Source: an uncultured Candidatus Saccharibacteria bacterium
GTDB lineage: Bacteria > Patescibacteriota > Saccharimonadia > Saccharimonadales > Saccharimonadaceae
Length of the DNA: 64,000 bases
Direction: 5' to 3'
NCBI GenBank assembly: GCA_964368785.1
Contig: CAYJCW010000003.1
Location: 71,704 to 135,703 of the forward strand
The notes under the pieces are model-generated. The model did not search any database and was not told the origin of the DNA. It saw nothing but the letters and a program-made list of their open reading frames with translations. This document shows, one piece after another, positions 4,013-22,091 of the stretch; the first letter of the stretch is position 1, and each line of letters opens with the position of its first letter. The translations under genes were made by a program, and so were the position numbers.

Positions 4013-4016
4013 CTAG

Positions 4017-5915: not shown

Positions 5916-5975
5916 TTATCCCCTCACTTCTATTCACATTTTATGATGTAATCTGTGGCTATTATACCATGCAGC

Positions 5976-8900
5976 TTACGATTCTTCCTCTGTATACAGT
6001 GCGTTAAAGTTGGCCCAGTACGACTTTTCTGCATTGCTCTGTCGTCCATTTGCGAAAGCCGGAAGCGCATTGAAGATATCCTGCTTAGCTTGTGTATTGC
6101 TCCAGCTTTGCATCCTAGATAGCAGGTCGTCAAAATCCTTACGGTGATGACGATAATTAGGCTGAGCCGTTTGGAATGAATTGACAACAATCTGTATCAT
6201 CTGGGCATCCTGTGTCTCTGTAAGCAAACTAAACAGGAGATAGATATAGTCATTCTTCGGAGTGTCCTGAAATAGTGGGTAATAGTCGTTAATTACCTGG
6301 AAGGCAATACGATGCGCGGATGAGATAGATCGGCCAGGTTCTCTCAGCCACGCCAGTAGCTCAGTTGCTATGCGACGCCTGTCAGTATCTTCTAGGAACT
6401 GTAACTGAACGAGGAAGTTATAGCTAATGTCAGACTGCTCAGGATCGCCACTCATAATAAGAGACTTGATTTGCTCGAGTGCAGTCTTTAATTCTGCCGT
6501 ATCCGACTTAAGTAGTCTTGATGCAATGAAATCAAAGTACTTCGATTTAAATGTATAGCTGTTCGCTCCAGCTTTGTCGAGCAACTTGGCAAGCGTCTCC
6601 TTGCGAGCAGGCACCTTACTGAGAGTAGCTATGAAGTCAATGTCAAAATAATTATTTACTGGCACCCGAGATATCAGGTCATCAATGATAGCCTTCTTCT
6701 CTTCATCTGCGGCATTGTCATAAATATAGCGCAGAACAGTCGCGGACACAGAAAGCTGCGGTAGCACCGTCGGAAGTATAAGCCTGATAAATCGTTCTCT
6801 CGTAGGCTCATTCCAATAGTCAAGCGGTCGCTGAATCTGCGAGAGATCTGTAAAACTTTGGAAATACGACTTTATACTATCACGAACTGCCTGCTTGTCG
6901 GTCTCGTTTACATATTGGCGAATCCAATAGAGTGCTACTATTTGATCTGAGCGCTCCTCCCATTGTGAGGTGTACGGAATGGATTTAATAATATCGTTTG
7001 CTATCTCCGTTAGGGGTGCAGCTGCGCTCTTCATATCATTTGAAAAAGTTTTAGTAAGTGGCGTAATCGCTTCAACTATCTTTATTTTATTGTCACCATA
7101 TCTCGATGATGTAGCAGTATCCTGCTTGAGTAGTTCCGATATTCTGGAAACGATATCGATAACGAGACCGTGGTCTGAAACATATTCTTTGAAGGCTGCC
7201 ATGGTAGCAAGCTTTGTAGCAAGATTGTCAAAGTCAAACGATTTTATATAATCAGTAACCAGCTTCTCGGTAATGAAAGACTCCTGGCTCTTGTTGGTTG
7301 TGAATATCGCAAGCGTCTCTTCGTCCAATCCATACTTAGTCTCAAGGATTGAGCGGATATTCGTCATTTGCTGCTTGTTTAATACCGAGGGATTATCTTT
7401 GAAATTAGCAATAACACCACGCCTCAGAGTTGTAATAGTATTGCCAGTGTCTAGTGCTGAGATATACCGTTCGACAATATTACTCCTAAGCGAGCGATTG
7501 AGGTTTTTATTTGCTAATAGGCTAAATATATGGTCGAGCGTAAAGCCCTCATATTTCTGCCACAGTTCTGTATCGATTGTTTTTGCGACTTCGTTGACGT
7601 ACCGCCTACTGCTGATGTTGATACCGAGGCTGGCAATCACCTCAAGTTGCGTGTTTACGACATTGATTAAGATATTTTCTTGACCCGTATATTTCATCAC
7701 CAAGTCTGTCATAAACTCGACAAGCTTATCATGAGCCTCATTGTTCGCGGCTTCAATAGCCTCCGTGACATTTGCGGCAACGAACGCATTCTTTATATCG
7801 TTCGCGTTACTCAAGCCTCGCGAATCAGCTGGGTCTTTGAAATAAATGAAAGGCTCCGCATCATCAACAGTAATACGGCTTGTCTTCCGCATGAAATTCG
7901 TGAAGTCAGTAGCCCCACCAGTCTCACTGCCACCATTAGTAATATTTTCTGGACTGTGCCACGTCTCTTTGAGAGATTCGTATGCCTTAGGGAACTTCTG
8001 CCGGATGATAAGTACCTTTGCAAGATATGCTATGTTGCTATTTATAATATCCTTTACACCCGTGCCTTGGGTACTGATGACCATGGCTATAAGGTTATTT
8101 ATAAACTGAATTATCTCACGTGGATTTCTGGAAAAGGCAGCATTGATGACAAGAATGACATCTTCGTCATTGAGCTGCTTGCCAATCTCGCCAGTTTCCT
8201 TAAGTAAGGACTTAGTGTATTCCTCAAGGTCAGTATTGATGAAGTCTGGTATCCAGATAATGAGATTAAATATCTTCCTTAGATATTCTGCGGCACCGAA
8301 AGAATCGTCTTGGTCGTGACGCACTCCGTAAAAGTATTTTTCGACCTGAACCTCGATTGCGGTCGGATCACAAGGAACCAAGAATACGATATCACCGCTA
8401 CTACCGCTGTACATAAATGTCTTGATTGTAGAGAGCATGGTTATCGCAACGTCACCCTGTACACGATCTATATTGTCAAAGACAATAACAAGCTTCTTGT
8501 CTACGCGGCTAAGTATGTCGATAAATTTCTGCTCAAACTGCTCGGGGGAGTTTAACCGATCTTCTTGGCTAATCTCGGTTACAAGTTCTATACGTTGCTC
8601 TTGCTTGGCGAAGAAAGACTCGGTCACTATTTTTAGGACACTTTCCAGTATCGGCTTACCGAATGCTCCAAGGAAGGCAATACTCGTCACGATAGTAGTC
8701 AGCTGGAGTATAAACTGCGACGCAACATTATTAGGATAAAAAGTTACTAAAACGGATGCGCCAATAAGCAACAGGACAGTCACTATAAGTGGTAGATACT
8801 TCTTTAGATATGACAGTACCTTTGCTTTAGTTGTGAGTTCAGTGGTAGATTTTTCCTTCTTGGCTACCGACACGGTTTTAGAAGAATACAAGTTAACTAA

Positions 8901-9233
8901 AATGTCATCTGGTAGGTCGTATTTTTGACTTCGTAGATATTCAACAAGTTTGATAAGAAATGTCCGACGCAGCGTGTCTTCCTGGTACTTCCACGCGTCA
9001 AATATAAAAACAGGCATATCGAGATCGGGGTCGTTCTGCACCATTTCGACAACCGTGCTTTTACCCGTACCCCATGCGCCGAACAAACCGATAGTATGAG
9101 GTGATGTGCTATCTTTTAAGATCTTCTTCAAAGCTGGTGCAATCGTAGCGTGGTAGAAGCCCTCATAACTAACCTCGGACTTTTTCCGAGGCTCATCTTT
9201 CAAAAAGATAAACTCAGGTGGTTTCTTTTTCAT
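5976..9233 (-). CDS. KAP-family P-loop NTPase with two TM helices and a long helical C-terminus, 1085 aa
   Basis: TIGLFGAWGTGKS Walker A, FDAWKY, two hydrophobic helices, LVIVFDNIDR Walker B, YLRKIF and NPREI motifs. Confidence 0.85.
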   Translation of the reverse strand: MKKKPPEFIFLKDEPRKKSEVSYEGFYHATIAPALKKILKDSTSPHTIGLFGAWGTGKSTVVEMVQNDPDLDMPVFIFDAWKYQEDTLRRTFLIKLVEYLRSQKYDLPDDILVNLYSSKTVSVAKKEKSTTELTTKAKVLSYLKKYLPLIVTVLLLIGASVLVTFYPNNVASQFILQLTTIVTSIAFLGAFGKPILESVLKIVTESFFAKQEQRIELVTEISQEDRLNSPEQFEQKFIDILSRVDKKLVIVFDNIDRVQGDVAITMLSTIKTFMYSGSSGDIVFLVPCDPTAIEVQVEKYFYGVRHDQDDSFGAAEYLRKIFNLIIWIPDFINTDLEEYTKSLLKETGEIGKQLNDEDVILVINAAFSRNPREIIQFINNLIAMVISTQGTGVKDIINSNIAYLAKVLIIRQKFPKAYESLKETWHSPENITNGGSETGGATDFTNFMRKTSRITVDDAEPFIYFKDPADSRGLSNANDIKNAFVAANVTEAIEAANNEAHDKLVEFMTDLVMKYTGQENILINVVNTQLEVIASLGINISSRRYVNEVAKTIDTELWQKYEGFTLDHIFSLLANKNLNRSLRSNIVERYISALDTGNTITTLRRGVIANFKDNPSVLNKQQMTNIRSILETKYGLDEETLAIFTTNKSQESFITEKLVTDYIKSFDFDNLATKLATMAAFKEYVSDHGLVIDIVSRISELLKQDTATSSRYGDNKIKIVEAITPLTKTFSNDMKSAAAPLTEIANDIIKSIPYTSQWEERSDQIVALYWIRQYVNETDKQAVRDSIKSYFQSFTDLSQIQRPLDYWNEPTRERFIRLILPTVLPQLSVSATVLRYIYDNAADEEKKAIIDDLISRVPVNNYFDIDFIATLSKVPARKETLAKLLDKAGANSYTFKSKYFDFIASRLLKSDTAELKTALEQIKSLIMSGDPEQSDISYNFLVQLQFLEDTDRRRIATELLAWLREPGRSISSAHRIAFQVINDYYPLFQDTPKNDYIYLLFSLLTETQDAQMIQIVVNSFQTAQPNYRHHRKDFDDLLSRMQSWSNTQAKQDIFNALPAFANGRQSNAEKSYWANFNALYTEEES

Positions 9234-9294
9234 AATTTCCCTCGAACCAACCCACCCGTTGATACGCTAAATCTCATTATAGCAAGAAATACAA

Positions 9295-9939
9295 CTATTT
9301 CAGCAGTTTCTCAAGAGTGTACCGCTCTCGTGCCAGCTCCTGTTTTCTCGCCACACTCGGTTCGGCTGCAATCTTCTTATTAATATTTTCGATTTGCTTT
9401 TGAATCTTTTCTCGTTGCTTGGTGTCCTGTACCGCTTCGGCAATCGGTTTGGTAGGGTTAAAAGTTGGGGCGATCTGCTGTAAGAAGCTGACGTAGATAC
9501 CCTTGACAGATCTGCCCGATAGGGTGAGAGCGGGTGTGCTCCACGACGTTTCATAATACTGGATGATTTTACTTTTCTGAGCGTCTTTATAGCTAGGTTC
9601 TTTGTATGATATGGCGTACTTCGTCTCGCGATTCGAACGGACGATGCCGAACAGGATTGGTCGGGGAATAATACTATCGATCGTTTCGAGGACTTTTTTA
9701 CTTAGCTCTCTGCCTTTGAGTGATATTTCAATAACGTCCAGCTCGTCGTATGTGCCGCCCGATATATTCATAGTTCGCGGTGCAATCACCGCACGGAGTG
9801 TGACTTTTTCTATCTCATCGACAAAGAGCTGTCGCAAGCTATAGTCAACCGCACCAACCTTGTAGAACTTCTCCTTAGGGATGCTCACGTTCGTCAAAGC
9901 GGAGTCAGGGAGGTTAACTATGTTCACTATGGTCACCAT
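9295..9939 (-). CDS. DUF4391-family protein
   Basis: Size about 214 aa, IPKEKFY-like N-terminus, coiled-coil C-terminus (IENINKKIAAEPSVARKQEL); typical position between SNF2 helicase and mod. Confidence 0.75.
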   Translation of the reverse strand: MVTIVNIVNLPDSALTNVSIPKEKFYKVGAVDYSLRQLFVDEIEKVTLRAVIAPRTMNISGGTYDELDVIEISLKGRELSKKVLETIDSIIPRPILFGIVRSNRETKYAISYKEPSYKDAQKSKIIQYYETSWSTPALTLSGRSVKGIYVSFLQQIAPTFNPTKPIAEAVQDTKQREKIQKQIENINKKIAAEPSVARKQELARERYTLEKLLK

Positions 9940-11695
9940 ATTTCTCTCGTATTTTTTGACTGATCATTGCTCGTGGAATCTCGTACAGCTTTACGATCTC
10001 ACTCCGTAACCACTTCGTCCGTGCTTCGAGCGACTCAAGATTCCAGGTTTCACAGTTATCGGCAATCCATCTAGTTGTGTAGTTTTCTGCGCCACCGATA
10101 CCATCACGCTTGTTGAGGTTACCAGCAAAGGTAAGATTCTTGTTTGGCGTAGGTGGATAGCCAACAATAGCGATATTGGCAAGTTTGCCATAAAACCGCT
10201 GATTAATTGTTTCCCAGTCTTCGCCTAGCTCTTCCTTCCATGCATCATCAAGCCTAAAGCCGTAAATTGCTTTTGGCATGATGTGAGCAACCTTTTGATG
10301 GAGAGAGCGAGTGTTTCCATCGTGTGCAATATCGAGTTCACATAACAAGACCCTTGCCTTGCTATCGGAAATGTCTTCATTAGTAATAGCAAATTCAATC
10401 CTCTCATCAGTAACATTGCGAGATTTACTTGGGTCGCCCGCACCTTCCATGTACCAGAGATAGGCATCGTAAAAGGAGCTCATCTCGTAGTCTTTGTAGC
10501 ACTTGTATACTGCATTTGCCGTACTGTTAATGAGCTTGAAGCCTCCAGTGCCGCCAATCTCATCACGCCTCTGCTGTTTTCCAACCACCGTTAGTATATT
10601 GCGGAAATCGTTCCTCGTCAGCTCGCCTTGCTTGTAATACTCCAATAGTTGGATAAAGAATGACAGATGTGACACTGCGACACTGTGCGTAGACGATTCG
10701 CTCTTACCTTGCATGTCTTCGTCGAACACGCTCAACATCTTGTGCTTGGTGATATCATCTTTCCATAGTAGATAGATATAGTCGTCTAGAATTGACGTGA
10801 TGTCCGACCATACTGCACGCAACTGGTCTAGTGACTGGTCTGGCGTGACACTGCTGTAATATTCCTTGAACTTCTCGTAGGTATTCTTTTCGTTGATAAC
10901 TTTGTCGTTGTACTTAATGGTGAGGAACACTCGGAAGAACCCGGTGATAAGTTGCGCACCAACACCAACAAATTCGCCACTTCTTGTTAGTGACTTTTCA
11001 ATCTTGAGCCAGTAGTCGTGATACACCATATTGCGTGCTTCTTCGGAATTGAGCATCAGAGCGAAGTTGCGTATCTTATCTCCATCGGTGAGCGGCTCAC
11101 CTGTAGCGTTGATATTCTCGAACACTACTTGTGGATTGTCGTCTTCTGGCGTGAGCAGAATTGATATCATGTCGATACGTTCGAGCACATCAAGATAGGG
11201 GTCGATTTTATCGAGGTTGCTTATCTTACCTACGAAGAAGGTATACATATCAAAGAGCTTCGACTGCTCGTCAACTGGTACAGTTTTACGTCGTAATATT
11301 CTATCAAAGGTCTCTCTGTCAGATGTTGCTCCGCGCAAGATAACCTTTAGCTCGCCATCATCCTCGTTATACAAAAATGTTTTACCTAGCTCTTCAGCAG
11401 TGTACTTCCACGATTTGCGAGAATCGTCGAGTAAGGCATGGTAGCAAGCGGTAATGAATAATAGTGTCGTAGTGAGTCGTTGCTGACCGTCAATTACTAC
11501 ACGATTTATATCGTCCTGAAAGAATACGATGCTGCCGAAGTAATGGCGCTTCGAATTTGATACTGTATCGTGGATACTCTCCCAGAAAGCCAGACCCTGC
11601 ATAGGCTTCCATGCGTACGGTCGCTGAAAGTCTGGAATCTTGAAGAATTGCGACTCTGCGATGAAGCTATGGAGATTGGTCTGCACTGCTCGCAT
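9914..11695 (-). CDS. DUF262 + DUF1524-like protein (GmrSD/SspE-like)
   Basis: IPDFQRPYAW, VIDGQQRLTT, FENINATGEPLT; C-terminal HIMP...ANI region resembles a diverged DUF1524 HNH domain. Confidence 0.85.
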   Translation of the reverse strand: MRAVQTNLHSFIAESQFFKIPDFQRPYAWKPMQGLAFWESIHDTVSNSKRHYFGSIVFFQDDINRVVIDGQQRLTTTLLFITACYHALLDDSRKSWKYTAEELGKTFLYNEDDGELKVILRGATSDRETFDRILRRKTVPVDEQSKLFDMYTFFVGKISNLDKIDPYLDVLERIDMISILLTPEDDNPQVVFENINATGEPLTDGDKIRNFALMLNSEEARNMVYHDYWLKIEKSLTRSGEFVGVGAQLITGFFRVFLTIKYNDKVINEKNTYEKFKEYYSSVTPDQSLDQLRAVWSDITSILDDYIYLLWKDDITKHKMLSVFDEDMQGKSESSTHSVAVSHLSFFIQLLEYYKQGELTRNDFRNILTVVGKQQRRDEIGGTGGFKLINSTANAVYKCYKDYEMSSFYDAYLWYMEGAGDPSKSRNVTDERIEFAITNEDISDSKARVLLCELDIAHDGNTRSLHQKVAHIMPKAIYGFRLDDAWKEELGEDWETINQRFYGKLANIAIVGYPPTPNKNLTFAGNLNKRDGIGGAENYTTRWIADNCETWNLESLEARTKWLRSEIVKLYEIPRAMISQKIREKYGDHSEHS

Positions 11696-11703
11696 AATAG
11701 TTA

Positions 11704-14700
11704 TTAGTCCCTAATCACCAGGAAGTTAATAAGTTCAAAATCATCCAAGCCCGATACATCATTACTAAGCACGGTCGTTTCACCAATTCTGAAAATGCTG
11801 TCGATGTCTTTTTCGTTCTTGACGGTAATAATAGACTGAATAGCATTCGTCAGAAGATCGGTATATCTCGACATATCTTTGCCACTGTTCGTTTCTGCGT
11901 TAAACTTAGCAACCATATCACTATCTGGCGTATCAAAGCCCTTGCCGAGATGACGAAGCTTATTAAGCAGCTCTTTCGACTGCAAGTGATTGACAGCCAC
12001 ACGACCATCGTCAGCGATGTATACCAGGTAGAATGGATGCAAGCGATTCTGTCTATCAATATTTACGCCTTGGTTAACATTCTTGAGCACGAATATCACG
12101 CCAGGTGGCGTATCCTCGCTAGCGCGAGCAACAGCATGAATGCCAAACGGAAGTGCGTCGGCCTCACCGTACTTTCCCAGTAACTCTTGGAGATCAAGAT
12201 GGAACTCGTTCAATCCTAGATCCATTATAGAAACTCCACCGCTCATGTCTTCTAGATCAACCACCTCATTTTGGATCTTTTCAAGTTGACTCTTGCGATA
12301 CTCAAGCTCCGCATTGTCAGCTTCATCAATTGGATTATCGTTACCTGTGGCGGTAAGGTTTACCATACGCATGCGACCCTCGACACGCGCTTTGAGGTTG
12401 ATGTATTCGTCGAGCGAAATATTTGGCCAAAAGTTTGTTAGCTGAATGACATTATTTGTTGAGCCAATACGATCGACACGTCCAAAGCGTTGAATAATTC
12501 GCACGGGATTCCAGTGAATGTCGTAGTTTATAAGATAGTCACAGTCTTGAAGGTTCTGACCCTCCGAGATACAGTCGGTGCCAAAGAGGATGTCTATTTC
12601 GCCAGGGTTTTCATCAAACAGCATATCGCGGCCTTTTGATTTGGGGGAGAATAGCGTCAGTATCGTATTGAAATCTGGCTTGACCGTACGCGTGGTTGGA
12701 ATGGTCATTGCAGGGTTGCGCGTACCGGTCACAACGGCAGAATCAAGACCGAACTCATTCTTAATCTTACTCGCAAGTTCTCCATAGAGGTAATCTGCCG
12801 TATCGGCAAAGGCAGTAAATACGAGTACTTTTTTGTTGTTGCCGTTGAGTGGGTTGTGTATTTTGTCACGAATTATTTCGAGGAGCCGCTGCAGCTTGAG
12901 GTCGTGCTCGTCGGCAATTGGCGTGATCATTGCAAGTAGTTCATTGAGTGTCGCCTTGTCCTCTTCGAGCTTGGCACGCCAGCTTACGAGATCGATATCC
13001 GCGAAATCAATTTTAAGATCTTTGCCGACTGTCCATTCCGCTTCTTCTGGGTCTTCGTCGTACTCGATCGTATTGATATTTGACTGATTTACTGTCGTGC
13101 TCGTTGCGCGCCCCTGCTCGAATCGATCAATATCATCAGTAATACCGTCAATCAGATCATACATACGCTCGGAGGTCTTACGGAAGGCGTATACACTACT
13201 TTCGAGGCGCTTTAGCATATTTGTTATCATCAGGACATTACGACCGGTTTCACGGTTTGCCCAGCTACGACCCTTGGCACTTTCGAGGTCAACATATTTG
13301 CCGAGCTTTGATGGGAATACGTATCGCATCGGAGTGTATACATCCATATTGAGAGAGTCTATGCGATTAAAAATCTCGTCGAAAGTAACGCCCTCGATAT
13401 CAGTCAATTCTGGGCGCTCAGAGATAGGCTTAAGGCGTGTCGGGAATTTACCAACGTCTGATAGCGAATAATAGCGTTCGATATGTTTACGTGAACGTGC
13501 AATCGTTACACTGTCGAGCAGTTCGAAAAAGTCGAAGTGTAGCATGTCGAGAAGTGCCGATGTGGTTCGACTTTCTGGCGGAAGTTCATTCCAAGCCTTG
13601 AATGCGCTGCTCGCATCACGAAAAATCTTTTCAACTGGATTCTCGGTGCCTAGCGATGAATCGAGATGAGTTGAGTCGCCCTCTGCTGCGAGCATTAGCT
13701 GGTTACGTAGATCTGTGAATCTATTGTTGACAGGTGTCGCTGAAAGCATTAATACCTTTGTCTTTACGCCATCACGGATAATGCGATTCATGAGTTTCTG
13801 ATAGCGATTCTCATACTCATCGTCTTCCTTGCGATGAGTACTTAACTCACCGTTACGGAAATTGTGCGACTCGTCGATCACAACTAGGTCATAGTTGCCC
13901 CAGTTGAGGTTTTGTAGATCGATACCATTGCTGTCGCCACGCTCTCGACTCATATCAGTATGAAATAGGACATCATAGCGCAAACGATCTTCTGCTACCG
14001 GATTGTTTTTGTAGTTGCCCTTGAAGGTATTCCAGTTGTCTTTTAGCCGCTTCGGAACAAGTACAAGCACATTCTTGTTACGTGATTCGTAATATTTAAT
14101 TACACCAAGCGCAGAGAATGTCTTACCGAGACCTACGGAGTCAGCGAGAATACAACCATTGTGTTTTTCGAGCTTCGAAATACAACCAATAACGGCATCT
14201 TTTTGGAAGTCGTATAGCTTGCTCCAGATTACAGAATTCTTAAACCCGGTGGCTTCGTTTGGTAGGTAGTCGGCATTGAGGTCTTCAAGAAATTCGCTAA
14301 AGATATTGTACAGCGCAGCAAAATAGATAAGCTCTGGTGAATTCTCTTTGTATGCGGCTGTGATGTTTTCGAGTACTGATTCTGTAACGTCGGCAATCTT
14401 TTCGTCGTCATTCCATACAGACTCGAACGTGTCTATGAAATGTTGCGCCTGCGGTGAATAAACTTTCGTCGTGGTAGAGTATGCGTTGTGGCCTCTATCC
14501 GCTCCTAAGTCGGCCGTGGTGAAATTCATAAGAGGAGAATAGGCAGCGTCTTGTTCGCTGTTTTGTACGGACATAAAAGGCATCATTTGTTCGCCTGATA
14601 CGTTTGACCTAAACTTTACCTTCCGACGAATCCATTCAGCACACTCTTTGGCAATGGCTTGCTGGTTTAGCTCATTGCGAAGTTTTATCTCGAAGTCAGT

Positions 14701-14970
14701 ACCATACAAAGAGCGTTCGGCATTGAGACGTGGGATATAGAACTCCCGAGACTCTCGAGGTGCACGCTCGTTTGTAAATACTTCACCCGTAAACAGAAAA
14801 TTCAATTCGTCGACCTGCTCTAGCTCTCGCTTAAGCAACTGGTAAGCATAGATAGAAAAGCTGGCAGCAGCAATATCTACCTTACTGCCGGCACGAATTG
14901 TCATTTTAAGATCATCAATAACTCTGTTTGAAATATTATCGAAGAAGACTGGGTTGTTAGTTTGGTTCAT
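11704..14970 (-). CDS. SNF2-family helicase with N-terminal PLD-like domain, type III R-M associated
   Basis: LADSVGLGKT, VIDESHNFRN, LSATPVNN, GTDCISEGQNLQDC, QRFGRVDRIGS; N-terminal AASFSIYAY...FRSN. Confidence 0.9.
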   Translation of the reverse strand: MNQTNNPVFFDNISNRVIDDLKMTIRAGSKVDIAAASFSIYAYQLLKRELEQVDELNFLFTGEVFTNERAPRESREFYIPRLNAERSLYGTDFEIKLRNELNQQAIAKECAEWIRRKVKFRSNVSGEQMMPFMSVQNSEQDAAYSPLMNFTTADLGADRGHNAYSTTTKVYSPQAQHFIDTFESVWNDDEKIADVTESVLENITAAYKENSPELIYFAALYNIFSEFLEDLNADYLPNEATGFKNSVIWSKLYDFQKDAVIGCISKLEKHNGCILADSVGLGKTFSALGVIKYYESRNKNVLVLVPKRLKDNWNTFKGNYKNNPVAEDRLRYDVLFHTDMSRERGDSNGIDLQNLNWGNYDLVVIDESHNFRNGELSTHRKEDDEYENRYQKLMNRIIRDGVKTKVLMLSATPVNNRFTDLRNQLMLAAEGDSTHLDSSLGTENPVEKIFRDASSAFKAWNELPPESRTTSALLDMLHFDFFELLDSVTIARSRKHIERYYSLSDVGKFPTRLKPISERPELTDIEGVTFDEIFNRIDSLNMDVYTPMRYVFPSKLGKYVDLESAKGRSWANRETGRNVLMITNMLKRLESSVYAFRKTSERMYDLIDGITDDIDRFEQGRATSTTVNQSNINTIEYDEDPEEAEWTVGKDLKIDFADIDLVSWRAKLEEDKATLNELLAMITPIADEHDLKLQRLLEIIRDKIHNPLNGNNKKVLVFTAFADTADYLYGELASKIKNEFGLDSAVVTGTRNPAMTIPTTRTVKPDFNTILTLFSPKSKGRDMLFDENPGEIDILFGTDCISEGQNLQDCDYLINYDIHWNPVRIIQRFGRVDRIGSTNNVIQLTNFWPNISLDEYINLKARVEGRMRMVNLTATGNDNPIDEADNAELEYRKSQLEKIQNEVVDLEDMSGGVSIMDLGLNEFHLDLQELLGKYGEADALPFGIHAVARASEDTPPGVIFVLKNVNQGVNIDRQNRLHPFYLVYIADDGRVAVNHLQSKELLNKLRHLGKGFDTPDSDMVAKFNAETNSGKDMSRYTDLLTNAIQSIITVKNEKDIDSIFRIGETTVLSNDVSGLDDFELINFLVIRD

Positions 14971-15019
14971 CTGTGCATATTATACCCTGTTTTACAGATA
15001 AAAATAATCCGACGAACAA

Positions 15020-15083
15020 AGAAAAAAAGATTCATGCTTCCTCGCAGGCGAGTGGGGCATGAATCTTCCTGACTTGTATTGTA
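15020..15083 (-). ncRNA. putative small hairpin RNA or terminator with its own extended -10 promoter
   Basis: On the minus strand, TGcTACAAT (-10 at 15078-15083) then AAGATTCATGC/GCATGAATCTT 11-bp stem with inner CTCG/CGAG stem and a T-run. Confidence 0.45.
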
Positions 15084-15091
15084 GCAGATTG

Positions 15092-15508
15092 TTATTTTTC
15101 GTTTACAAACGCCTGTAGCGTTACCATCTCTTTAGTCATTTGGTCAGGCACATTTCGGAGATCAATTTCAATCCATGAGTCCATAACACCGTGTTCTTGG
15201 AGGTCGATCTTCTCGCCGCTAAAACAATCGTCGTCGAACCATAGGAATGGCTGCGAGAAATCAATAGCTTCGGTTTTCTTCAGGCTCCACGTTACCGGTT
15301 TGAACTCCTCAAGCCATGTGCGCAGATCTTGATGAGATGCTCGATTGAGATATTCAATCGCGTGAGTAGGGTCACCATTCATACAATGTGTTGTTAGCCA
15401 GTACACATCAAAGTGTTCGACTGCATACTGTATAAATTCAGCCGCACCAATCGCGAGGTTCTCTTCATTGGCGAGAAGTACGCCATCGATATCTAAATAA
15501 ATGTTCAT
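15092..15508 (-). CDS. HAD-superfamily domain protein (Swiss-Army-Knife RNA-repair-type HAD-like)
   Basis: MNIYLDIDGVL, WLTT, LWFDDD; start placed at ATG 15508, which overlaps the upstream stop. Confidence 0.75.
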   Translation of the reverse strand: MNIYLDIDGVLLANEENLAIGAAEFIQYAVEHFDVYWLTTHCMNGDPTHAIEYLNRASHQDLRTWLEEFKPVTWSLKKTEAIDFSQPFLWFDDDCFSGEKIDLQEHGVMDSWIEIDLRNVPDQMTKEMVTLQAFVNEK

Positions 15509-15774
15509 CAGTCTTTCATAGCCTCCTTTAGCCAATCTCCCTCGTCTTCGATAGGATATAACACCTTCTTACCGTCTCGTCGCCACTGATGTCTGCAATC
15601 GTTGCAGGAGTAATCTGGCTCGCTATCGTCAACCAGACAACCTCCAAGAATAACCCTGCCATCTTCAAGGTCTTTTTCGAGTTTCTTATCAAAAGCAGGC
15701 ATACCCATGAGTACAAGAGCAACGTGCGTTGATTTGCACGTCGGACAACTGAAGGATGAAGCATTACTTGTCAT
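15508..15774 (-). CDS. small Zn-ribbon protein, 88 aa
   Basis: CPTC...GGC...YSCNDC; overlaps both neighbouring genes. Confidence 0.65.
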   Translation of the reverse strand: MTSNASSFSCPTCKSTHVALVLMGMPAFDKKLEKDLEDGRVILGGCLVDDSEPDYSCNDCRHQWRRDGKKVLYPIEDEGDWLKEAMKD

Positions 15775-15931
15775 GGTTGATCGTCGGCAGAATTACGGTT
15801 ATCAGCTCGTCAGTCTCTTGCTGCGACATAGCTTGTTTCTTTGGCGGAGCAGCCTTCTTACTGCGCTTCTTTGCCGCACCGATGAGCACCAGTACTCCAA
15901 TAGTAGCGCCAAAAGCAATAAGCTCGATCAC
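15764..15931 (-). CDS. small single-TM protein, 55 aa (not in the ORF track)
   Basis: GTG start overlaps the DUF2779 stop, GAGGTG RBS; MIELIAFGATIGVLVLIGAAKKRSKKAAPPKKQAMSQQETDELITVILPTINHDK. Confidence 0.65.
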   Translation of the reverse strand: MIELIAFGATIGVLVLIGAAKKRSKKAAPPKKQAMSQQETDELITVILPTINHDK

Positions 15932-17421
15932 GATCGCACCTCAATTAGTTCTTTGAGCTTCTCGTAAATCGCTACCATCGCATACGTATCTAATCCACAA
16001 TACTCTCGCAGGTCAGCGAGTATCTGGTCTTTGTCGGGTCGCGTACCGTCAACAATTACTTCTCGCCACGAACGGCTGGCAGTCGAGCCTTCTTGAATAC
16101 CAAGAGTCTTATAGGACAGCTCAGGGCATAGTAGCGGCAGCACCTTCTTGATTGAATACTTACCCTTGAGCCGTTTATCGAGATACATTCGCTTGCTAAA
16201 TACGTCAGCGAGATCAACCGTACGCTTGTTGAGGTCTTCAAAAAACGGAGCATGCTCTGGATAGAGCTTGGCGTACTCTTTATGGCGTGAGCACTCGAAG
16301 GTCTTATTCCACACGATAATTGAGCCTATACTGCCAATATCTTGCTTCAGGTGGGCGATGACCCCCTCGGCAGGGTTTGTGTTCGTGTCGTGAAGATACT
16401 CGGTATGCGTCAGCGTACCGTCCTCTTGCATGATATGTAGCGAATATTGGAAGACAACCTGTTGGTACGGAAAAGTATGATCAAAAGGCGGAAAGATATG
16501 GTTGATCGACTCGTAATCAAGGAAATAGGCTGGAAACTCAATATCTCCAAGAAATGCCCGAATAGCTTCTTTATCGATAATAATCTCATCAAGCTTCGTC
16601 ACCCGTACTTGGTCTTGCTGATGAGCTTGTAGCTTGGTTGATTCTGGAATGTCGACGATGAGCTTTACTTCGTCATCTTCTAGGCTTCCTATCAGCTTGT
16701 CCGTGCCAGCGCCTTTATTAGAGGCAAGGTCGTAGATGCTATATTCAGGAATATCTGGATGAAGCTTATGGAAGATATCTCGGTATTCGCTCGCAGCACC
16801 AAGCCCAACGTAGCGGAGCGAGTCACTTGGCATTGTATCACTCTCGGCTGTCTTGGCGGCTTCTCGCATCTTCCCAGGGGCATTCAGAACTTCTTTGTTT
16901 ACTTTGTCGGTAACATCAGTAAACATCACGATATCTTCGAGCTTAATGTCACCGCTACGAAGATACTCTTTGTTAGCGTGCAGTACTTGGGCAGTTCGCA
17001 CAGGAAAGCCACTCCACTCGATAACCGTCTTCTGAAACGCAAGGTCGCAGATATGCTCTTTGTCTGGTGACGTAGTAGCTTTAATTTCTGTCAGCGTATA
17101 GGCATCGCCATCACTCGTAATGGCGTCGGCAATACACAGGAAGCCATCATAGAGGAAGGCTGCTTGTAAAATGGTGTCGACACCTTGCTTGAGCAGTGCT
17201 TTCGTTTCGTCCGCCCATTCTTGCATGTCTGCATAGTCGTTACGATCGAGACGTATTGCTTCGGGGAATATATGCTCGGCTAGCTTCTCGAACTCTCGCC
17301 CCTCGTCGATGATAGCCTGTGAGTTTTCGTCAGGTATTGGTAGAAAGTCTGGATCGTGTTTGCGAAGCCAGAGCCATGCTGGGTGTTTGAGGTAGGTTAT
17401 GTAGTCGGTTTTGGAAATCAT
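15928..17421 (-). CDS. DUF2779 domain protein (PD-(D/E)xK-like N-terminus plus RNase H-like domain)
   Basis: CIADAI...EIKAT; AYFLDYES, PYQQVVFQYSLH, YSIKKVLP, YCGLDTYAM. Confidence 0.8.
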   Translation of the reverse strand: MISKTDYITYLKHPAWLWLRKHDPDFLPIPDENSQAIIDEGREFEKLAEHIFPEAIRLDRNDYADMQEWADETKALLKQGVDTILQAAFLYDGFLCIADAITSDGDAYTLTEIKATTSPDKEHICDLAFQKTVIEWSGFPVRTAQVLHANKEYLRSGDIKLEDIVMFTDVTDKVNKEVLNAPGKMREAAKTAESDTMPSDSLRYVGLGAASEYRDIFHKLHPDIPEYSIYDLASNKGAGTDKLIGSLEDDEVKLIVDIPESTKLQAHQQDQVRVTKLDEIIIDKEAIRAFLGDIEFPAYFLDYESINHIFPPFDHTFPYQQVVFQYSLHIMQEDGTLTHTEYLHDTNTNPAEGVIAHLKQDIGSIGSIIVWNKTFECSRHKEYAKLYPEHAPFFEDLNKRTVDLADVFSKRMYLDKRLKGKYSIKKVLPLLCPELSYKTLGIQEGSTASRSWREVIVDGTRPDKDQILADLREYCGLDTYAMVAIYEKLKELIEVRS

Positions 17422-17441
17422 ATTTTACTCCTCAGAATGCC

Positions 17442-19736
17442 CTATCTTTTACTTAATGAAAGAAATACATCATCAATGCGTGAATTCTCATCCGATTTCA
17501 TTTCTCTTTGAGTCTCAAAGTCGTCATCGTCTTTAGAATAGAAGCTTGAGCCATCATAGTCTTCTGGCGGTTCAGCCCATGCATTAAACTCATTATCGAC
17601 GAAACTACTGTTAAGACCATAGCATTCCAATGTATCGTTCATCTCATCTTTAATATCGATATCCTTCTCACCGTCTGTTAACCGCTGTCGCACTTCTTCG
17701 CTAAGGATGTCTTCATAATACTCGTCCTGAGCTATTTTTTCGGCTATGCGATCCAAGACAAACTTTTTGATGCCGTAGCTCCATCCTATCTCAGCCACTG
17801 TTTTCATGTCTTCATAGGTACCGACAGCACCTACAACCGAGTGTACAAAATTATCTGCTACTTCATCTGGTAGGTCGTCGGAATCACAGTACGAATCAAA
17901 GGCATTAAGTGCAGCCGAAACGTCTTGAGTGTGAGGGACAGAAGACTGTAATGTCGCAAGCACAGCCTGAGAGAACTCTTGATTGACCTCCTCTATAGCA
18001 TCCGACACATCAGAGAGCCTCGATATGCTATCAAAAATATCAAAGCTCTCAGGAGTGCCTGAATTACCTAGCCATGGCAGCTGCTGCCAGCTACTAAGGA
18101 CTTTTTCCTTCATCGCTTCAACACCCGATTCATTTAGTACGATAGGAGTATAGCCAGATAACGAAGCACGTAATTCGTAACTGCTACTATCCGCACTGAT
18201 TGCGAATGGATGCGTAAGCTGGTTGAGGTATACGGCACTTCTAATGAGCTTTTCAACCGAGTGGTTGTGTCCACGATAATAGTGAGTGATAAAGTCGTAA
18301 ATAGTAGGGTTTAATACATCTACGATGATCTGATCATCTTTATCTTTTGATGTTTTCAGGAATGTGCTTTCAAGCACATCAATAGATCGACGCAGCTGCG
18401 TTTCGTCGATCGTATCATCAAAAGAAACTACTGCCTTATGTAGATATTCAAAGCGTACATTTCTTCCGATTGACATCATCACCAGCATAATATTGCGAGC
18501 ATTTTCGTCGATCTTATTCATATAGATATCCTCGTATAACATCCAAGGGTTATTGAATAGTTCGATTACCTTATCGCAAAATGATTCTGGCAGGCAATCC
18601 GACCAAAGCTTTTGCTTATTAATCGTTTCAATGAGGCGTGGATTATAGTTCCTATGTCTCACGATACTTCTATATACTTTTTTGTCGACAAAATATTCGA
18701 GGTGATCCTCTGGCATATCCGATACCGCGAGATGATTGTAGAGGATCTTGGCTTTTGTCACCAAGTCATATTCAGATAGATCTACAATATATTTCGCGTC
18801 AAGAAAGCCCTGATCTTTAAATACTTCGGTGCTTTGTTGAGCCTGATGAAGTATATACTCACGCGTCGTCATGATAAGTGCCTTATTTTTTCTTAGACGG
18901 CCTGCGTTTTCAATCAATGTCTTAAATATGCCATCTTCTCTGCGAGATAGCTTATCATCTAGGTAGTTACTACCAAGGAAGTCATCAAACAGGAAAATCT
19001 GCTTCTTGTCAGGGTCACTGCTCATCATCTCTAGGGCGTCGTTGATATCTTGCGGCAAAGCGACCAACTCATTAAAATCGCCCTCACCAAGCAAGTAGTA
19101 GCTCATAACGTCGGCAAGTGTCGTTTTTCCTACTCCAGGTTCGCCAGCAATGACAATAAACCCGTGCTCCTTAAGTGTTAACATAGCCTCATTAAAACTT
19201 GGGGTTGGGGAATAGGTTTCTAGCGTGTCGATAATCTTTTCTTTGATAAGACCACTATAATTAGACACCCTACTTGAAAGTATTGTTTGCAGTACATTGC
19301 TGCTTGCGATCCAGAGCTTATAATGCCTCTTCTCAACACTAGGATGCTTGTGTAATAAACTATTAAGCTGTTTGGGCGTAAGTATATCACTCGATTGTTT
19401 GATGTATGGCGAAAACAGTGTGACTATATCGTCTATCTTATCCTCTGTAAGGTCTAGCGATACTGAGAGGATGTACCTCTCGGGAGCAGGGCTCATCTCG
19501 TCCAGCTTGAGACGCTCTTTAGCTAAATTCGCCATAAGACCTGACACGCTTTTATAGCGCTTACATTGCACAACAATCGTGCGGTCGTTGTCGCATGCCG
19601 AATACCTTAGGTCGATACCACCATCCGCTCCATCCGCGAACGCCTGAAACGATACACTCATTTCTTCTGAAAGTAGATCTTTCGTGAATTCCTCGAACTC
19701 GCCCCATGTCAAAACATTAAAGTTATACTCATTCAT
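17442..19736 (-). CDS. Mrr-like restriction endonuclease fused to an nSTAND3-type NTPase
   Basis: FEEF..DLL, DGGIDL, VQCKRY; IAGEPGVGKTTLA, FDDFLG, TTREYI, NPRLIE. Confidence 0.8.
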   Translation of the reverse strand: MNEYNFNVLTWGEFEEFTKDLLSEEMSVSFQAFADGADGGIDLRYSACDNDRTIVVQCKRYKSVSGLMANLAKERLKLDEMSPAPERYILSVSLDLTEDKIDDIVTLFSPYIKQSSDILTPKQLNSLLHKHPSVEKRHYKLWIASSNVLQTILSSRVSNYSGLIKEKIIDTLETYSPTPSFNEAMLTLKEHGFIVIAGEPGVGKTTLADVMSYYLLGEGDFNELVALPQDINDALEMMSSDPDKKQIFLFDDFLGSNYLDDKLSRREDGIFKTLIENAGRLRKNKALIMTTREYILHQAQQSTEVFKDQGFLDAKYIVDLSEYDLVTKAKILYNHLAVSDMPEDHLEYFVDKKVYRSIVRHRNYNPRLIETINKQKLWSDCLPESFCDKVIELFNNPWMLYEDIYMNKIDENARNIMLVMMSIGRNVRFEYLHKAVVSFDDTIDETQLRRSIDVLESTFLKTSKDKDDQIIVDVLNPTIYDFITHYYRGHNHSVEKLIRSAVYLNQLTHPFAISADSSSYELRASLSGYTPIVLNESGVEAMKEKVLSSWQQLPWLGNSGTPESFDIFDSISRLSDVSDAIEEVNQEFSQAVLATLQSSVPHTQDVSAALNAFDSYCDSDDLPDEVADNFVHSVVGAVGTYEDMKTVAEIGWSYGIKKFVLDRIAEKIAQDEYYEDILSEEVRQRLTDGEKDIDIKDEMNDTLECYGLNSSFVDNEFNAWAEPPEDYDGSSFYSKDDDDFETQREMKSDENSRIDDVFLSLSKR

Positions 19737-19999
19737 TCTAAATCATATCGCGCGTAACGCAGTTATTAATCCCACTTGCTTTTCTTCGCTTATAGGTCAA
19801 TTATACAATGACTGCTAGGGTTTGACACGTAATCATCTCAGGTAAACAGTCGAAAAACACAAGAGGAGGCGATAAGAGGGGTCTTATTACAAAAGGACTC
19901 CTCTTATTCTCGTAATCTACAGAGATGACTGTGGCATCACCCCTGTTAAACTAGGGAGCTTCTACCTCTCAATTAAAATAATCCCAGTGAGTCCAATAT

Positions 20000-20052
20000 C
20001 TTAGGAACTAGTGCCGTAAGGCGTGAAGGTTCAAGTCCTTTCATCCGCACCA
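20000..20052 (+). tRNA. 3' half of tRNA-Leu(TAG), probable att site and not a complete tRNA
   Basis: CTTAGGA anticodon loop, ACTAG, long variable arm, GGTTCAAGTCC T-arm, TCATCCGCACCA end; 5' half absent. Confidence 0.85.
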
Positions 20053-20345
20053 TAAGAGCCCTACTGCAACTCTGGCCCTCTTGCGGCCCCTCGGGCAGCA
20101 GTAGCGCCCCTAAGAACTCATCCAGCAGGCCACCGGCAACGGTGGCCTGCGTTGTTGTTGCCCCTACGCCTCCGTGGCGCTCTGCCTCTGCCACCGCCAG
20201 TTCGCGGGCCAGCCCAGCATCTCCTGTCTCCTCGAGTGCCACCCATCCGCGCTGGGTCGCCAGCAGCTCCCGCATCGGTGTGTTCAGCTCGTCACCAACA
20301 ACTTCCTCGTTCACCACGTAGACATGCCTAAAGATGGCTTGGTTG

Positions 20346-20441
20346 AGTGTAAGTAACTCTCTCTTTTATATACATTTCTATTGAGATAGAAAAATACTTC
20401 TATCTGTAAAAATGTATGTAAAATGTTTGGTTACTTACACT
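20346..20441. repeat. long nested AT-rich inverted repeat
   Basis: AGTGTAAGTAAC/GTTACTTACACT (12 bp), TTTTATATACATTT/AAATGTATGTAAAA, AGATAGAA/TTCTATCT. Confidence 0.7.
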
Positions 20442-20574
20442 GAAATACCTACCCTAAAAAAGAGCTATCAAAAAAAGGCTTAAACCCTAAACTAATAAAC
20501 TAAGCCAAGCAAATGTCGGTAAATCTTAAGGTAGTAAAAGCCTCCCTCACTCATAGGGTTGAAACTTGGTAACA

Positions 20575-20622
20575 AAAGCAAAAGACGTGCTTGATTCAGT
20601 TCAGTATCTTGCACGTCTTTAT
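20575..20622 (-). ncRNA. putative hairpin sRNA, copy 2
   Basis: TGcTATACT (-10 at 20629-20634), 6 nt, then ATAAAGACGTGC...GCACGTCTTTTT. Confidence 0.6.
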
Positions 20623-20640
20623 GGTTCCAGTATAGCAGAA

Positions 20641-20687
20641 ATAAGAAAAGACGCGGTTGATACAGTACAGTAACGTGCGCGTCTTAT
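20641..20687 (-). ncRNA. putative hairpin sRNA, copy 1
   Basis: ATAAGACGCG...CGCGTCTTTTC; 32/40 nt identical to copy 2 with a compensatory pair change; TTGACA at 20720-20725 inside the toxin gene end. Confidence 0.6.
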
Positions 20688-20711
20688 CTATGTATTATGT
20701 TAGTAAAAAGC

Positions 20712-21101
20712 TTACAGTATGTCAATGATTTTTCGGTGCTTTGTGATGACTTTCAGTTGCTTTATGTCGTGTGGACCCGATACGAGATAATGGCGAATTC
20801 GAGCCTCTGCTTTCTTTTGATGTAGTTTAGCTCGGCGCAAGTCTATGACGATATTACGGGATTGCTTGCGAGCGGTGCGCAAATTATTGTCTATTGTTTT
20901 TCTACCGTCTCCTTTTGGACTTTTAATTTCCCATTTTGTACCATTCACGTCTATGTCTGGTGTTTTCTTCCGCTCAGGGCGCAAAAAGATTACGTCAGAC
21001 TTGAAGTAATACGCCAAAAGAACCGCAGCAGACATTTCGTGGTCTTTCGGTGAATCCTCGGGGTCAGTTCTGACGACGACTTCGTATTTTCTTTTTGGCA
21101 T
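20712..21101 (-). CDS. stand-alone CdiA_C-like PD-(D/E)xK nuclease (putative toxin), 129 aa
   Basis: KKTPDIDVNGTKWEIKSP, RKQSRNIVID; TGtTAAAAT 7 nt before the ATG. Confidence 0.7.
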   Translation of the reverse strand: MPKRKYEVVVRTDPEDSPKDHEMSAAVLLAYYFKSDVIFLRPERKKTPDIDVNGTKWEIKSPKGDGRKTIDNNLRTARKQSRNIVIDLRRAKLHQKKAEARIRHYLVSGPHDIKQLKVITKHRKIIDIL

Positions 21102-21191
21102 TAGGTCTATTTTAACATTTTACTTGTCAGTTTACGGACGTAACCGCATTACTTGCATTGGCGAAGCTGCGCTGGAGTTCGGTTCACGTAA

Positions 21192-21353
21192 AAGTTTAAA
21201 ATTGCACCAAGACTGAGCAAATTCAGGGAATCCGCCCAAGCGCTAGACATTGTCACCAAGCACAGTCTATCCAACGAGCAGCTTGACGCAATCGCCAACA
21301 TTATGCAAAAGTATAAAGGAATTAAGATTAACGTAATTGAGGCTCCCGAATGA
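21192..21353 (+). pseudogene. start-less 53-codon gene remnant, possibly a toxin C-terminal tip
   Basis: Open frame KFKIAPR...EQLDAIANIMQKYKGIKINVIEAPE; its TGA overlaps the next ATG. Confidence 0.35.
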
Positions 21354-21829
21354 ACAATGGGCAGACGCGAGAGAACGGCTATGCGGACATTTATGTAAGT
21401 AAATCAAATTCACTTGCCTATTTGTATCGCGTGGAGAAGGCTGGGCCGATTTCTTCAACACACACGTTTCTCCCCCAGGAGGAGGCGGAGACTCTAGGCT
21501 CCTTGGCGGTACGAGCGCTCAGCGCTTCGTTGCTGCTCTCCGAAGGCGGCTCTCCTGCGGGAGTCACGCCTCTGTCGTGGAAAGAACTTCTCGCACGTCT
21601 GGGTCAGTCGCAGAAGACGATTTACGCAAACGTTCCGATTGTCGGGTTTCGTAGCTTCACCGGTGGGTCAATCGATGTCGGCATTGATTTTTATTCCAAT
21701 ACAGGAAAACTGATCGACGCTCAGGATGTCACATTCTCGGCTGAAGAGATTTCTAACGCCGACCTCCCCTCGCTCCTCGATGCAACAATCACCCGGTTTG
21801 TCCACGAGTTTCACCAGCGTCAACCCTAG
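21350..21829 (+). CDS. hypothetical protein, 159 aa (possible orphan immunity protein)
   Basis: Protein-like ORF coupled to the remnant upstream. Confidence 0.55.
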   Translation: MNNGQTRENGYADIYVSKSNSLAYLYRVEKAGPISSTHTFLPQEEAETLGSLAVRALSASLLLSEGGSPAGVTPLSWKELLARLGQSQKTIYANVPIVGFRSFTGGSIDVGIDFYSNTGKLIDAQDVTFSAEEISNADLPSLLDATITRFVHEFHQRQP

Positions 21830-22091
21830 CCCCTCCGCTTCGCCCTACCCAGCCAAAGCCATGACGAGAAAACAGACGGCCAGTGTGGCTGCGATTGGTG
21901 TCATTGTGTACCGTTCCTGTTTGCTGCGACACCGGGCGTTTAGTATCGTTGCCAAGGGCAATGAGCGCTGCAATTGGTACCATGAGCCTTAGTATAACGC
22001 ATGCCGTACCGCAGGGGCAGTGGCGAAAAAGTGCATCGAACGCACCTTCTTCTTGTGTTATCATAAAAGGAATGAGAAAGAGGACGGGGAA

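Follow-up and report, generated by a model that had tools for sequence, protein, structure and literature searches.

A Stand-Alone CdiA_C-Type Nuclease of Saccharibacteria and Its Linked Hairpin RNA: A Candidate Type III-Like Module

Introduction

We analyzed a 64,000-nucleotide (nt) stretch of DNA from an uncultured Candidatus Saccharibacteria bacterium (positions 71,704 to 135,703 of contig CAYJCW010000003.1; referred to here as the window), in which a minus-strand gene for a small nuclease is followed directly by two short hairpin-forming units. A first, sequence-only reading of this locus had taken the nuclease for a toxin that lacks an immunity protein and the two hairpins for its RNA antitoxin, with abortive infection as a possible function. 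Comparison with related loci supports the central part of that proposal and changes several others. An RNA partner for a toxin-type nuclease is well supported, because gene and RNA are linked in 44 of 45 loci, the stem of the RNA covaries, no conserved protein partner was found, and the protein resembles the C-terminal toxin (CT) of CdiA from strain 1026b in both hidden Markov model (HMM) and fold comparisons. Here, we describe the nuclease and its RNA and weigh what the RNA may do.

Results

The Nuclease Belongs to the CdiA_C Family

The nuclease gene (coordinates of the mapped features are collected in Table 1) encodes a basic protein of 129 amino acids. CdiA_C (PF18451) was the sole Pfam family above its cut-off (E = 2.9e-18; 66.2 bits versus a cut-off of 26.6), with a match that spans residues 46-125 and takes in all 81 model positions, and no ToxN-type family matched. 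Searching the PDB by sequence gave only a marginal match to 4g6v (E = 0.78), and so a fold search was needed. We modeled the protein with AlphaFold2, using 32 homologs as input (predicted local distance difference test [pLDDT] 88.6, predicted template modeling score [pTM] 0.82), and compared the model with the PDB using Foldseek. The top match was 4g6v_A, the CdiA-CT of Bp1026b (E = 1.9e-6, probability 1.00, TM 0.62), and it was the only significant one, as all remaining matches had E ≥ 0.09. Residues E22, P48-D49, E58, and K60 are invariant among the 32 homologs; the PD of the nuclease aligns with the PD of 4g6v_A, and E58 aligns with the second Asp of 4g6v_A.

By profile, predicted fold, and catalytic residues, the nuclease is a member of the CdiA_C/cd13442 domain family that stands outside any contact-dependent inhibition (CDI) system. 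We found no signal peptide, N-terminal delivery domain, or MuF domain on the Saccharibacteria protein, and the layout of a CDI locus (a large CdiA, CdiB, and a downstream CdiI) is absent, the homologs being mostly 120-140 amino acids long. The sequence-only reading had thus correctly described a PD-(D/E)xK nuclease that lacks a secretion domain and differs in fold from ToxN, CptN, and TenpN. The characterized relative, CdiA-CT 1026b, acts as a tRNase on tRNA-Ala, which it cleaves in the acceptor stem; an immunity protein neutralizes it by blocking its active site (PMC9086364). By analogy, tRNA or other RNA is the likely target of the nuclease described here.

A box resembling a -10 element, with TGT in front of it, lies upstream of the nuclease start codon. 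In most homologous loci, a -10 box likewise precedes the ATG by 6-9 nt and a Shine-Dalgarno sequence is absent, so that the nuclease mRNA is probably leaderless or near-leaderless.

Two Hairpin RNAs of Different Types Lie Downstream

The two 40-nt units behind the gene (20580-20619 and 20646-20685, minus strand) are spaced 66 nt apart and are identical at 33 of 40 positions (83%). The sequence-only reading had the units and their spacing right, with coordinates off by one and an identity of 32 of 40. Each unit is predicted to fold into a hairpin of -16.4 kcal/mol (z about -3.8), a stability that none of 200 shuffled sequences matched. The stems, AAGACGUGC/GCACGUCUU in one unit and AAGACGCG/CGCGUCUU in the other, differ by a compensatory exchange of U-A for C-G; the loops are ACUGAACUGAAUCAA and ACUGUACUGUAUCAA, and runs of U follow both units. 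All of these elements, described earlier at the DNA level as a T-A to C-G change, conserved loops, and T-runs, are present on the minus strand.

The proximal RNA, which we call type B, is about 50 nt long and consists of the outer stem AAGACGCG/CGCGUCUU, an internal loop, a short inner stem, the apical loop ACUGUACUGU, and a U-tract. It is 95-97% identical to the RNAs of three loci (L003, L018, and L020) whose nucleases most resemble that of the window, and on this sequence evidence it is likely the cognate partner of the window nuclease. The distal RNA (type A, also about 50 nt) has the stem AAAGACGUGC/GCACGUCUUU, an AA/AA internal loop, an inner stem GAU/AUC, the loop ACUGAACUGA, and a U-tract. 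It is likewise 95-97% identical to RNAs from another nuclease clade, those of L006, L007, and L019, whose genes share only 64-69% DNA identity with the gene in the window. Because its type matches the RNAs of another clade, the distal RNA is by sequence an orphan-like copy of that clade's RNA rather than a tandem duplicate. The two units are therefore not equivalent repeats of one antitoxin, as had been assumed, but two different RNA types.

That each unit has its own promoter was borne out by our promoter scan and by inspection of the sequence. The -35 box of the proximal RNA, TTGACA, is written within the nuclease codons for I-D-I and is followed after 17 nt by the -10 box TAACAT, and an extended -10 box, TGCTATACT, precedes the distal hairpin. 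A covariance model (CM) built from 37 homologous hairpins found only two matches in the 64-kb window, the two RNAs (69.6 and 68.5 bits), and scored 18.5 bits on the antisense strand. No RNA family of Rfam 15 matched anywhere in the window at gathering thresholds, and a search of 20300-21400 with an E-value threshold returned only chance microRNA-like matches to a separate AT-rich hairpin. A terminator scan left both hairpin sites uncalled; the stem and U-tract probably also terminate transcription, including that of the nuclease.

The RNA Is Linked to the Nuclease Gene across Relatives

A profile search of 1.84 billion representative sequences yielded 1129 clusters (50% identity) at E ≤ 0.001, and the members of the best-scoring 150 of these 1129 are nearly all stand-alone proteins of 120-140 amino acids. 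The nuclease has hundreds of relatives, and those with a name come almost all from Candidatus Saccharibacteria/Saccharimonadales. For 44 loci retrieved from species-representative genomes, we inspected the 3' flanks; the totals given here are over 45 loci. The sequence-only reading depended on homologs carrying the hairpins, and a promoter, hairpin, and U-tract were present directly behind the nuclease gene in all but one of the 45, nearly all of them in Saccharibacteria genome bins. The exception is a Mycobacterium relative (L044), in which no such promoter or hairpin was found behind the nuclease gene.

The linkage is tightest in family 1, the subfamily of the window (40-76% protein identity), in which all 28 other loci have an R1-type hairpin right after the stop codon. 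The layout of this subfamily is a -35-like hexamer, a 16-18 nt spacer, a -10 box that is often TG-extended, a further 7-10 nt, and then a hairpin of the form AAAGACGYG...CRCGUCUUUU. In these 28 loci, the end of the stop codon comes 13-14 nt after the -35-like hexamer; over all loci, this distance is mostly 13-16 nt (-13/-14 throughout L001-L023 and L025-L027). Promoters with at least 10 of 12 consensus matches occur in 64% of the 45 loci, compared with 1.4% of random 75-nt segments. In 15 more distant loci of Saccharibacteria type, a promoter occupies the same place and is followed by hairpins of different sequence with U-tracts; these RNA subfamilies are too divergent for one joint alignment and were folded singly.

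Relatives with 77-83% identity to the window protein have differing neighborhoods, yet in each the RNA lies about 20 nt past the stop codon. RNA copies found with nhmmer are all on the strand of the gene, and almost all are directly downstream of it. Most loci have a single RNA unit. Where there are more, the arrays mix RNA types, and the second and third copies come after a first terminator. Two modules can occur in one genome bin (L007 with L011; L002 with L051). Modules and orphan RNAs are often found within a few hundred bases of tRNA genes for Asn, Gly, Leu, or His (L014, L015, L027, L095, L003, L024, and L151), which is consistent with insertion at integration hot spots.

One contig that carries a close relative of the window gene also has a second, distant CdiA_C-type gene (L161:635-1110). 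The promoter behind this second gene overlaps its last codons and is followed by an RNA of about 90 nt with three GAAA tetraloop hairpins. Read from the sequence, this arrangement suggests joint diversification of the nuclease and its RNA partner.

The Hairpin Is a Structured and Selected RNA

We next consider whether the conserved unit is an RNA structure. The structure tested was a 10-bp outer stem, an internal loop of 2x2 to 4x4, a 3-bp inner stem, and a 10-nt loop. The 37 hairpins could be aligned readily, and in their alignment 90.4% of the cells are paired and 10 of the 13 base pairs show compensatory changes. None of 500 shuffles reached the observed values on four of five measures, and 1 of 500 did so on the fifth, that of further pair types. 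When the pairing partner was slid by 1-3 columns, pairing fell to 29-62% (maximum 61.5%), and RNAalifold recovered the same helices. The inner stem alternates between GAU/AUC, GGU/ACC, GGC/GCC, and GGG/CCC. The seven core pairs of the outer stem contain 21 G.U and no A.C cells; because of this asymmetry and the low score of the covariance model on the antisense strand, we conclude that the structure forms in RNA of the sense strand.

Near-invariant positions in the aligned hairpins are the apical loop ACUGWAYUGW, the G and C that flank it, and AUCAA. In 272 of 300 pairs of loci, the coding DNA is less conserved than the RNA, whose identity follows that of the gene (Spearman 0.48). The units do not have the properties of plain intrinsic terminators (a short loop of 3-8 nt, a free loop sequence, and no promoter of their own): the region inside the outer stem is about 20 nt long and holds both the invariant motif and the covarying inner stem.

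No Protein Partner Is Conserved, and RNAs Outlive Their Genes

We clustered the open reading frames (ORFs) of at least 70 amino acids within 2.5 kb of the nuclease over the 45 loci and found no conserved protein neighbor. ORFs of 20-90 amino acids within about 400 nt of the gene likewise included none that is conserved, except for spurious translations of the hairpin. The earlier statement that the nuclease has no downstream protein partner holds, and none is conserved upstream either. The comparison of conserved neighbors also revealed no secretion genes linked to the nuclease.

In four nuclease genes, single-base changes have turned codons for conserved residues into nonsense codons, and the RNAs of these genes are intact. 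A pattern scan of 185,579 species genomes found further copies of the RNA in Saccharibacteria. About 10 of these have no nuclease gene upstream in the DNA of the locus, yet they have kept the -10 box, and the extended -10 boxes of such orphans are similar to that of the distal copy in the window. Some orphans adjoin remnants of the 3' end of a gene, such as those encoding "...KIIDF*" and "...TQKITDIL*". Intact RNAs beside nuclease pseudogenes, orphans with promoters, mixed arrays, and variable genomic positions together form a pattern of decay like that of toxin-antitoxin (TA) systems. Duplexes of each RNA with its cognate nuclease mRNA were no better than those of shuffled sequences (mean z +0.48) and had no consistent target position.

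Phage MuF Toxins with the Same Domain Are Followed by Other Hairpins

The domain cd13442 has been named as a MuF toxin domain of the polymorphic toxins of temperate phages, for which small downstream immunity ORFs are expected (PMC5576092). On viral contigs, we found the nuclease domain at the C terminus of MuF-type proteins of 250-565 amino acids that resemble Mu F and SPP1 gp7 (L128-L144 and L162-L177). In most of these loci, 100-250 nt without a credible ORF separate the toxin stop codon from the next, often scaffold-like, gene. The gap holds a conserved three-tier hairpin followed by a terminator (e.g., L163:1881-2010 and L165:1881-2080), with a covarying outer stem (GAAGCCAG, GAAGACGGC, or GAAGGCGAC) and a conserved core, CCCACCWGG...CGGG. 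One clade (L163) has a promoter, TTGAAC-17-TACAAT, that spans the stop codon exactly as the promoter in the window does. Two loci have a downstream ORF instead (L141, 125 amino acids; L144, 139 amino acids), which is a candidate protein immunity factor. As the alignment of the MuF hairpins contains four distinct sequences only, we treat it as a lead and not as a result. It differs from the Saccharibacteria module in that the domain is fused to a virion protein and the hairpins are of other sequence and size. With that reservation, the MuF loci suggest that nucleases of this clade may generally have RNA partners.

The Module Borders a Defense Island

Within the window, the module borders a 20-kb defense island (884-19736) in which all genes are on the minus strand (Table 1). 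The nuclease itself matched none of the PADLOC models.

Table 1. Positions of the Module and of the Genes of the Adjoining Defense Island
Feature	Position in window	Strand	Basis or remark
Nuclease ORF (129 amino acids), putative toxin	20712-21101	-	stand-alone PD-(D/E)xK; CdiA_C/cd13442-type toxin domain
-10-like box of nuclease gene, TAAAAT, TGT in front	21109-21114	-	sequence; 7 nt upstream of the ATG
-35 box of proximal RNA, TTGACA	20720-20725	-	promoter scan; inside nuclease codons for I-D-I
-10 box of proximal RNA, TAACAT	20697-20702	-	promoter scan; 17 nt after the -35 box
Proximal small RNA (about 50 nt, type B)	20638-20692	-	CM match (68.5 bits) and fold
Extended -10 box of distal RNA, TGCTATACT	20629-20637	-	sequence; 7-8 nt before the distal hairpin
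Distal small RNA (about 50 nt, type A)	20572-20626	-	CM match (69.6 bits)
Type III restriction enzyme and methylase	884-5915	-	
QatA-like ATPase	5976-9233	-	
DUF262-type Orf5/HEC-06	9914-11695	-	
HKD and Snf2 helicase	11704-14970	-	
DUF2779 protein	15928-17421	-	
Mrr nuclease and nSTAND3 NTPase	17442-19736	-	matches PADLOC candidate PDC-S73 end to end

Between the island and the module, a 3' fragment of tRNA-Leu(UAG) (19998-20052, plus strand) extends from the anticodon loop to CCA and lacks its 5' half; it aligns with the intact tRNA-Leu of L003. ARAGORN found no tRNA in the window. From its sequence, the fragment looks like a displaced copy of an attachment (att) site, which would mark the right border of an integrated element with the defense island to its left. 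The adjoining short segment 20053-20340 is G+C-rich, unlike its surroundings, and contains a strong terminator-like hairpin (20125-20150, plus strand); it may be what is left of foreign DNA at the border of the island. An ORF of 114 amino acids (19973-20317, minus strand) has no Pfam match. An AT-rich inverted repeat at 20343-20444, between the distal RNA and the tRNA fragment, has 38-nt arms that are 76% complementary and a 26-nt spacer. It drew only chance microRNA-like matches from Rfam and may mark a mobile-element end or a structure associated with an att site.

On the other side of the module, a divergent ORF (21350-21829, plus strand, 159 amino acids) was considered as a further component. 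It matches no Pfam or PADLOC family, its co-occurrence with the nuclease is confined to same-strain contigs (L147-L150), and it probably lies outside the module. The cumulative GC skew has its minimum at about 21000-22000, where gene orientation changes from minus (left) to plus (right). A search for DnaA boxes gave no support for a replication origin as another reading of this AT-rich region, as sites resembling such boxes are not enriched and none lies within 20-22 kb.

Discussion

A Model in Which the RNA Neutralizes the Nuclease

On balance, we think it somewhat probable that the hairpin RNA neutralizes the nuclease, which would make the locus a type III-like toxin/RNA-antitoxin module in which both the toxin fold and the RNA layout are new. 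We favor an RNA that acts on the protein because the nuclease is of toxin type and has no protein partner, the RNA is constrained and independently transcribed (as its promoter predicts), no antisense target is apparent, the RNAs outlive the genes, and heterologous RNAs are collected.

In such a module, the leaderless gene would give rise to a small PD-(D/E)xK nuclease like CdiA-CT 1026b, which would be toxic when free. A strong promoter, with its -35 box written in the last codons of the gene, would supply an excess of a hairpin RNA of about 50 nt that ends at its own U-tract, and the first hairpin would also end the nuclease transcript. The nuclease would bind the conserved apical loop (ACUGWAYUGW, with two YUGW half-sites) and the purine-rich internal loop. 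The RNA would probably sit in or over the substrate cleft as a pseudo-substrate, perhaps at the site that CdiI occupies on the 1026b toxin, and would thereby keep the enzyme inactive. The YUGW half-sites could serve as the pseudo-substrate, possibly as a mimic of an anticodon loop, for an enzyme that cuts tRNA; the assignment of a particular anticodon (CUGAA as Phe, CUGUA as Tyr) stays speculation. If transcription stopped or the RNA was degraded, for example during phage infection, a short-lived RNA would be lost and the freed nuclease would arrest the cell. Additional RNA units that differ in type, such as the distal copy in the window, may neutralize non-cognate nucleases in the manner of orphan immunity genes.

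Several points weigh against this model. The similarity to CdiA-CT 1026b is remote (24% identity, TM 0.62) and leaves the substrate unfixed. The nuclease is unusually conserved for an accessory toxin, with 65-91% identity among 120 listed matches and a minimum of about 40% in the Saccharibacteria loci, and such conservation would also fit a beneficial ribonucleoprotein (RNP) enzyme. Because the hairpin would double as the terminator of the gene, it could owe some of its conservation to a role in cis. Simple gene decay would, for a while, leave orphan RNAs and pseudogenes just as well. The layout, with the RNA downstream, no processed repeat array, and another toxin fold, is unlike that of every characterized type III system.

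Alternative Roles for the RNA

The RNA might instead be a positive cofactor, so that nuclease and hairpin form an RNP enzyme that depends on the RNA for specificity, stability, or activation (for example, by way of a kissing loop with a conserved target RNA). The strict co-occurrence of the two, the predicted independent and probably strong expression of the RNA, the near-invariance of the loop nucleotides, the high conservation of the protein, and the correlation of RNA identity with gene identity (Spearman 0.48) would all suit such an enzyme. A cofactor would, however, have little reason to persist as promoter-keeping orphans, as intact RNAs beside nonsense-mutated nucleases, or as heterologous types within arrays, and a 10-nt loop that is near-identical in all genomes cannot serve as a programmable guide. 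Moreover, CdiA-CT 1026b and E479 act without RNA cofactors and are neutralized at the active site by their partners (PMC9086364). We consider a cofactor role improbable, if the best placed of the alternatives.

A second alternative keeps the core mechanism, an RNA that neutralizes a nuclease, and differs from the toxin-antitoxin model only in biological role: the hairpins would be immunity RNAs against nucleases that arrive with phage particles, neighbors, or transferred DNA, and the resident nuclease would be a weapon or a phage-derived cassette. The domain is indeed a polymorphic-toxin cassette found in CdiA and in phage MuF proteins (PMC5576092), the viral MuF-nuclease genes are themselves followed by a conserved hairpin and mostly lack an immunity ORF, and arrays of orphan and heterologous RNAs resemble clusters of orphan immunity genes. 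The Saccharibacteria protein, though, has neither a signal peptide nor a delivery or MuF domain, and no secretion genes are linked to it. This role seems to us slightly less probable still than that of a cofactor.

It is quite unlikely that the hairpin is merely a cis-acting 3' element, a terminator or a stabilizer of the mRNA, behind a "promoter" that is a by-product of conserved C-terminal codons. A hairpin and U-tract directly past a stop codon do have the look of a terminator, and the -35 box is partly fixed by the coding of I-D/E-I. The -10 box is non-coding, however, and it is conserved at a spacing of 16-18 nt, often with a TG extension; orphans that lie far from any nuclease gene have also kept a -10 box. 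Terminators also have no need of a near-invariant 10-nt loop and a covarying inner stem, the terminator scan made no call, and the second and third copies follow a first terminator.

Least credible of all are an antisense regulator of the nuclease mRNA (type I-like) and a DNA-level site for recombination or nuclease recognition in a mobile cassette, for although the module is mobile, occurs in variable contexts, often beside tRNA genes, and has a hairpin that is also an inverted repeat in DNA, RNA-mRNA complementarity is within the range of shuffled controls with no consistent target position, the apparently leaderless mRNA offers no 5' untranslated region as a target, and a DNA palindrome or antisense transcript is rejected because of the 21 G.U versus 0 A.C cells and the strand-specific CM score (69 versus 18 bits), along with a U-tract on one side only.

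Relation to Known Systems

The closest protein relative is CdiA-CT(II) of B. pseudomallei 1026b, whose complex with CdiI is 4G6V. The likeness lies in the domain family (by HMM), in the only significant fold match, and in a PD-(D/E)xK core with aligned PD and acidic residues. In contrast to that toxin, which is the tip of a large secreted CdiA, the nuclease here is a free protein of 129 amino acids with about 24% identity to it; it has no CdiB, CdiI, or conserved protein neighbor, and its conserved partner is an RNA.

The arrangement is more like that of type III TA systems (ToxIN, CptIN, and TenpIN), in which the gene for an endonuclease-type toxin adjoins a small structured non-coding RNA and there is no protein antitoxin. 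Mobile-element and defense contexts are common to both, as is the expectation that the RNA is in excess, and by analogy the proposed mechanism is the same: the RNA would bind and inactivate the protein, and its loss would free it. The differences are equally clear. The toxin has a PD-(D/E)xK fold instead of a ToxN/AbiQ-like one, the RNA is downstream of the gene instead of upstream, and each unit has its own promoter and terminator, whereas the type III RNAs form a tandem repeat array that the toxin processes. Most loci have one unit, and multiple units are of different RNA types. The suggestion of a repeated RNA of the type III kind thus did not hold for this family, in which units are mostly single, form complete transcription units downstream of the gene, and give no sign of processing.

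AvcID is also type III-style, with a toxin that is not ToxN-like and a single small RNA antitoxin without a processed repeat array (PMC10511110). Its toxin is a deoxycytidylate deaminase, and there is no relation in sequence or structure to the RNA or the protein described here. The gene layout of AvcID reportedly also differs from that of the module. In the literature that we searched, we found no RNA partner of CdiA-type nucleases, no RNA of this kind, and no type III system in Saccharibacteria.

Significance

If the RNA neutralizes the nuclease, the module would be a new and widespread family among the few known type III systems. It would combine a different toxin fold with a simpler RNA design, a self-contained hairpin gene of about 50 nt whose promoter lies in the last codons of the toxin. 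Both parts are small, so that the pair can be tested easily and might also serve as a compact nuclease switch under RNA control.

The same outcome would mean that a classic polymorphic-toxin domain, normally blocked by a protein, can be blocked by an RNA, and it would change the search for immunity genes beside toxins, those of phage MuF proteins included. A broader proposal, that an RNA partner is the general check on nucleases of the cd13442/CdiA_C clade, in stand-alone Saccharibacteria modules and phage MuF toxins alike, is tentative, and we hold it to be possible rather than probable. Were it true, these hairpins would be the first RNA "immunity factors" for a polymorphic-toxin domain, and arrays of orphan RNAs would be comparable to orphan immunity genes. 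For Saccharibacteria, whose accessory biology is poorly known, a neutralizing RNA would point to a defense- or addiction-type module that is specific to these bacteria.

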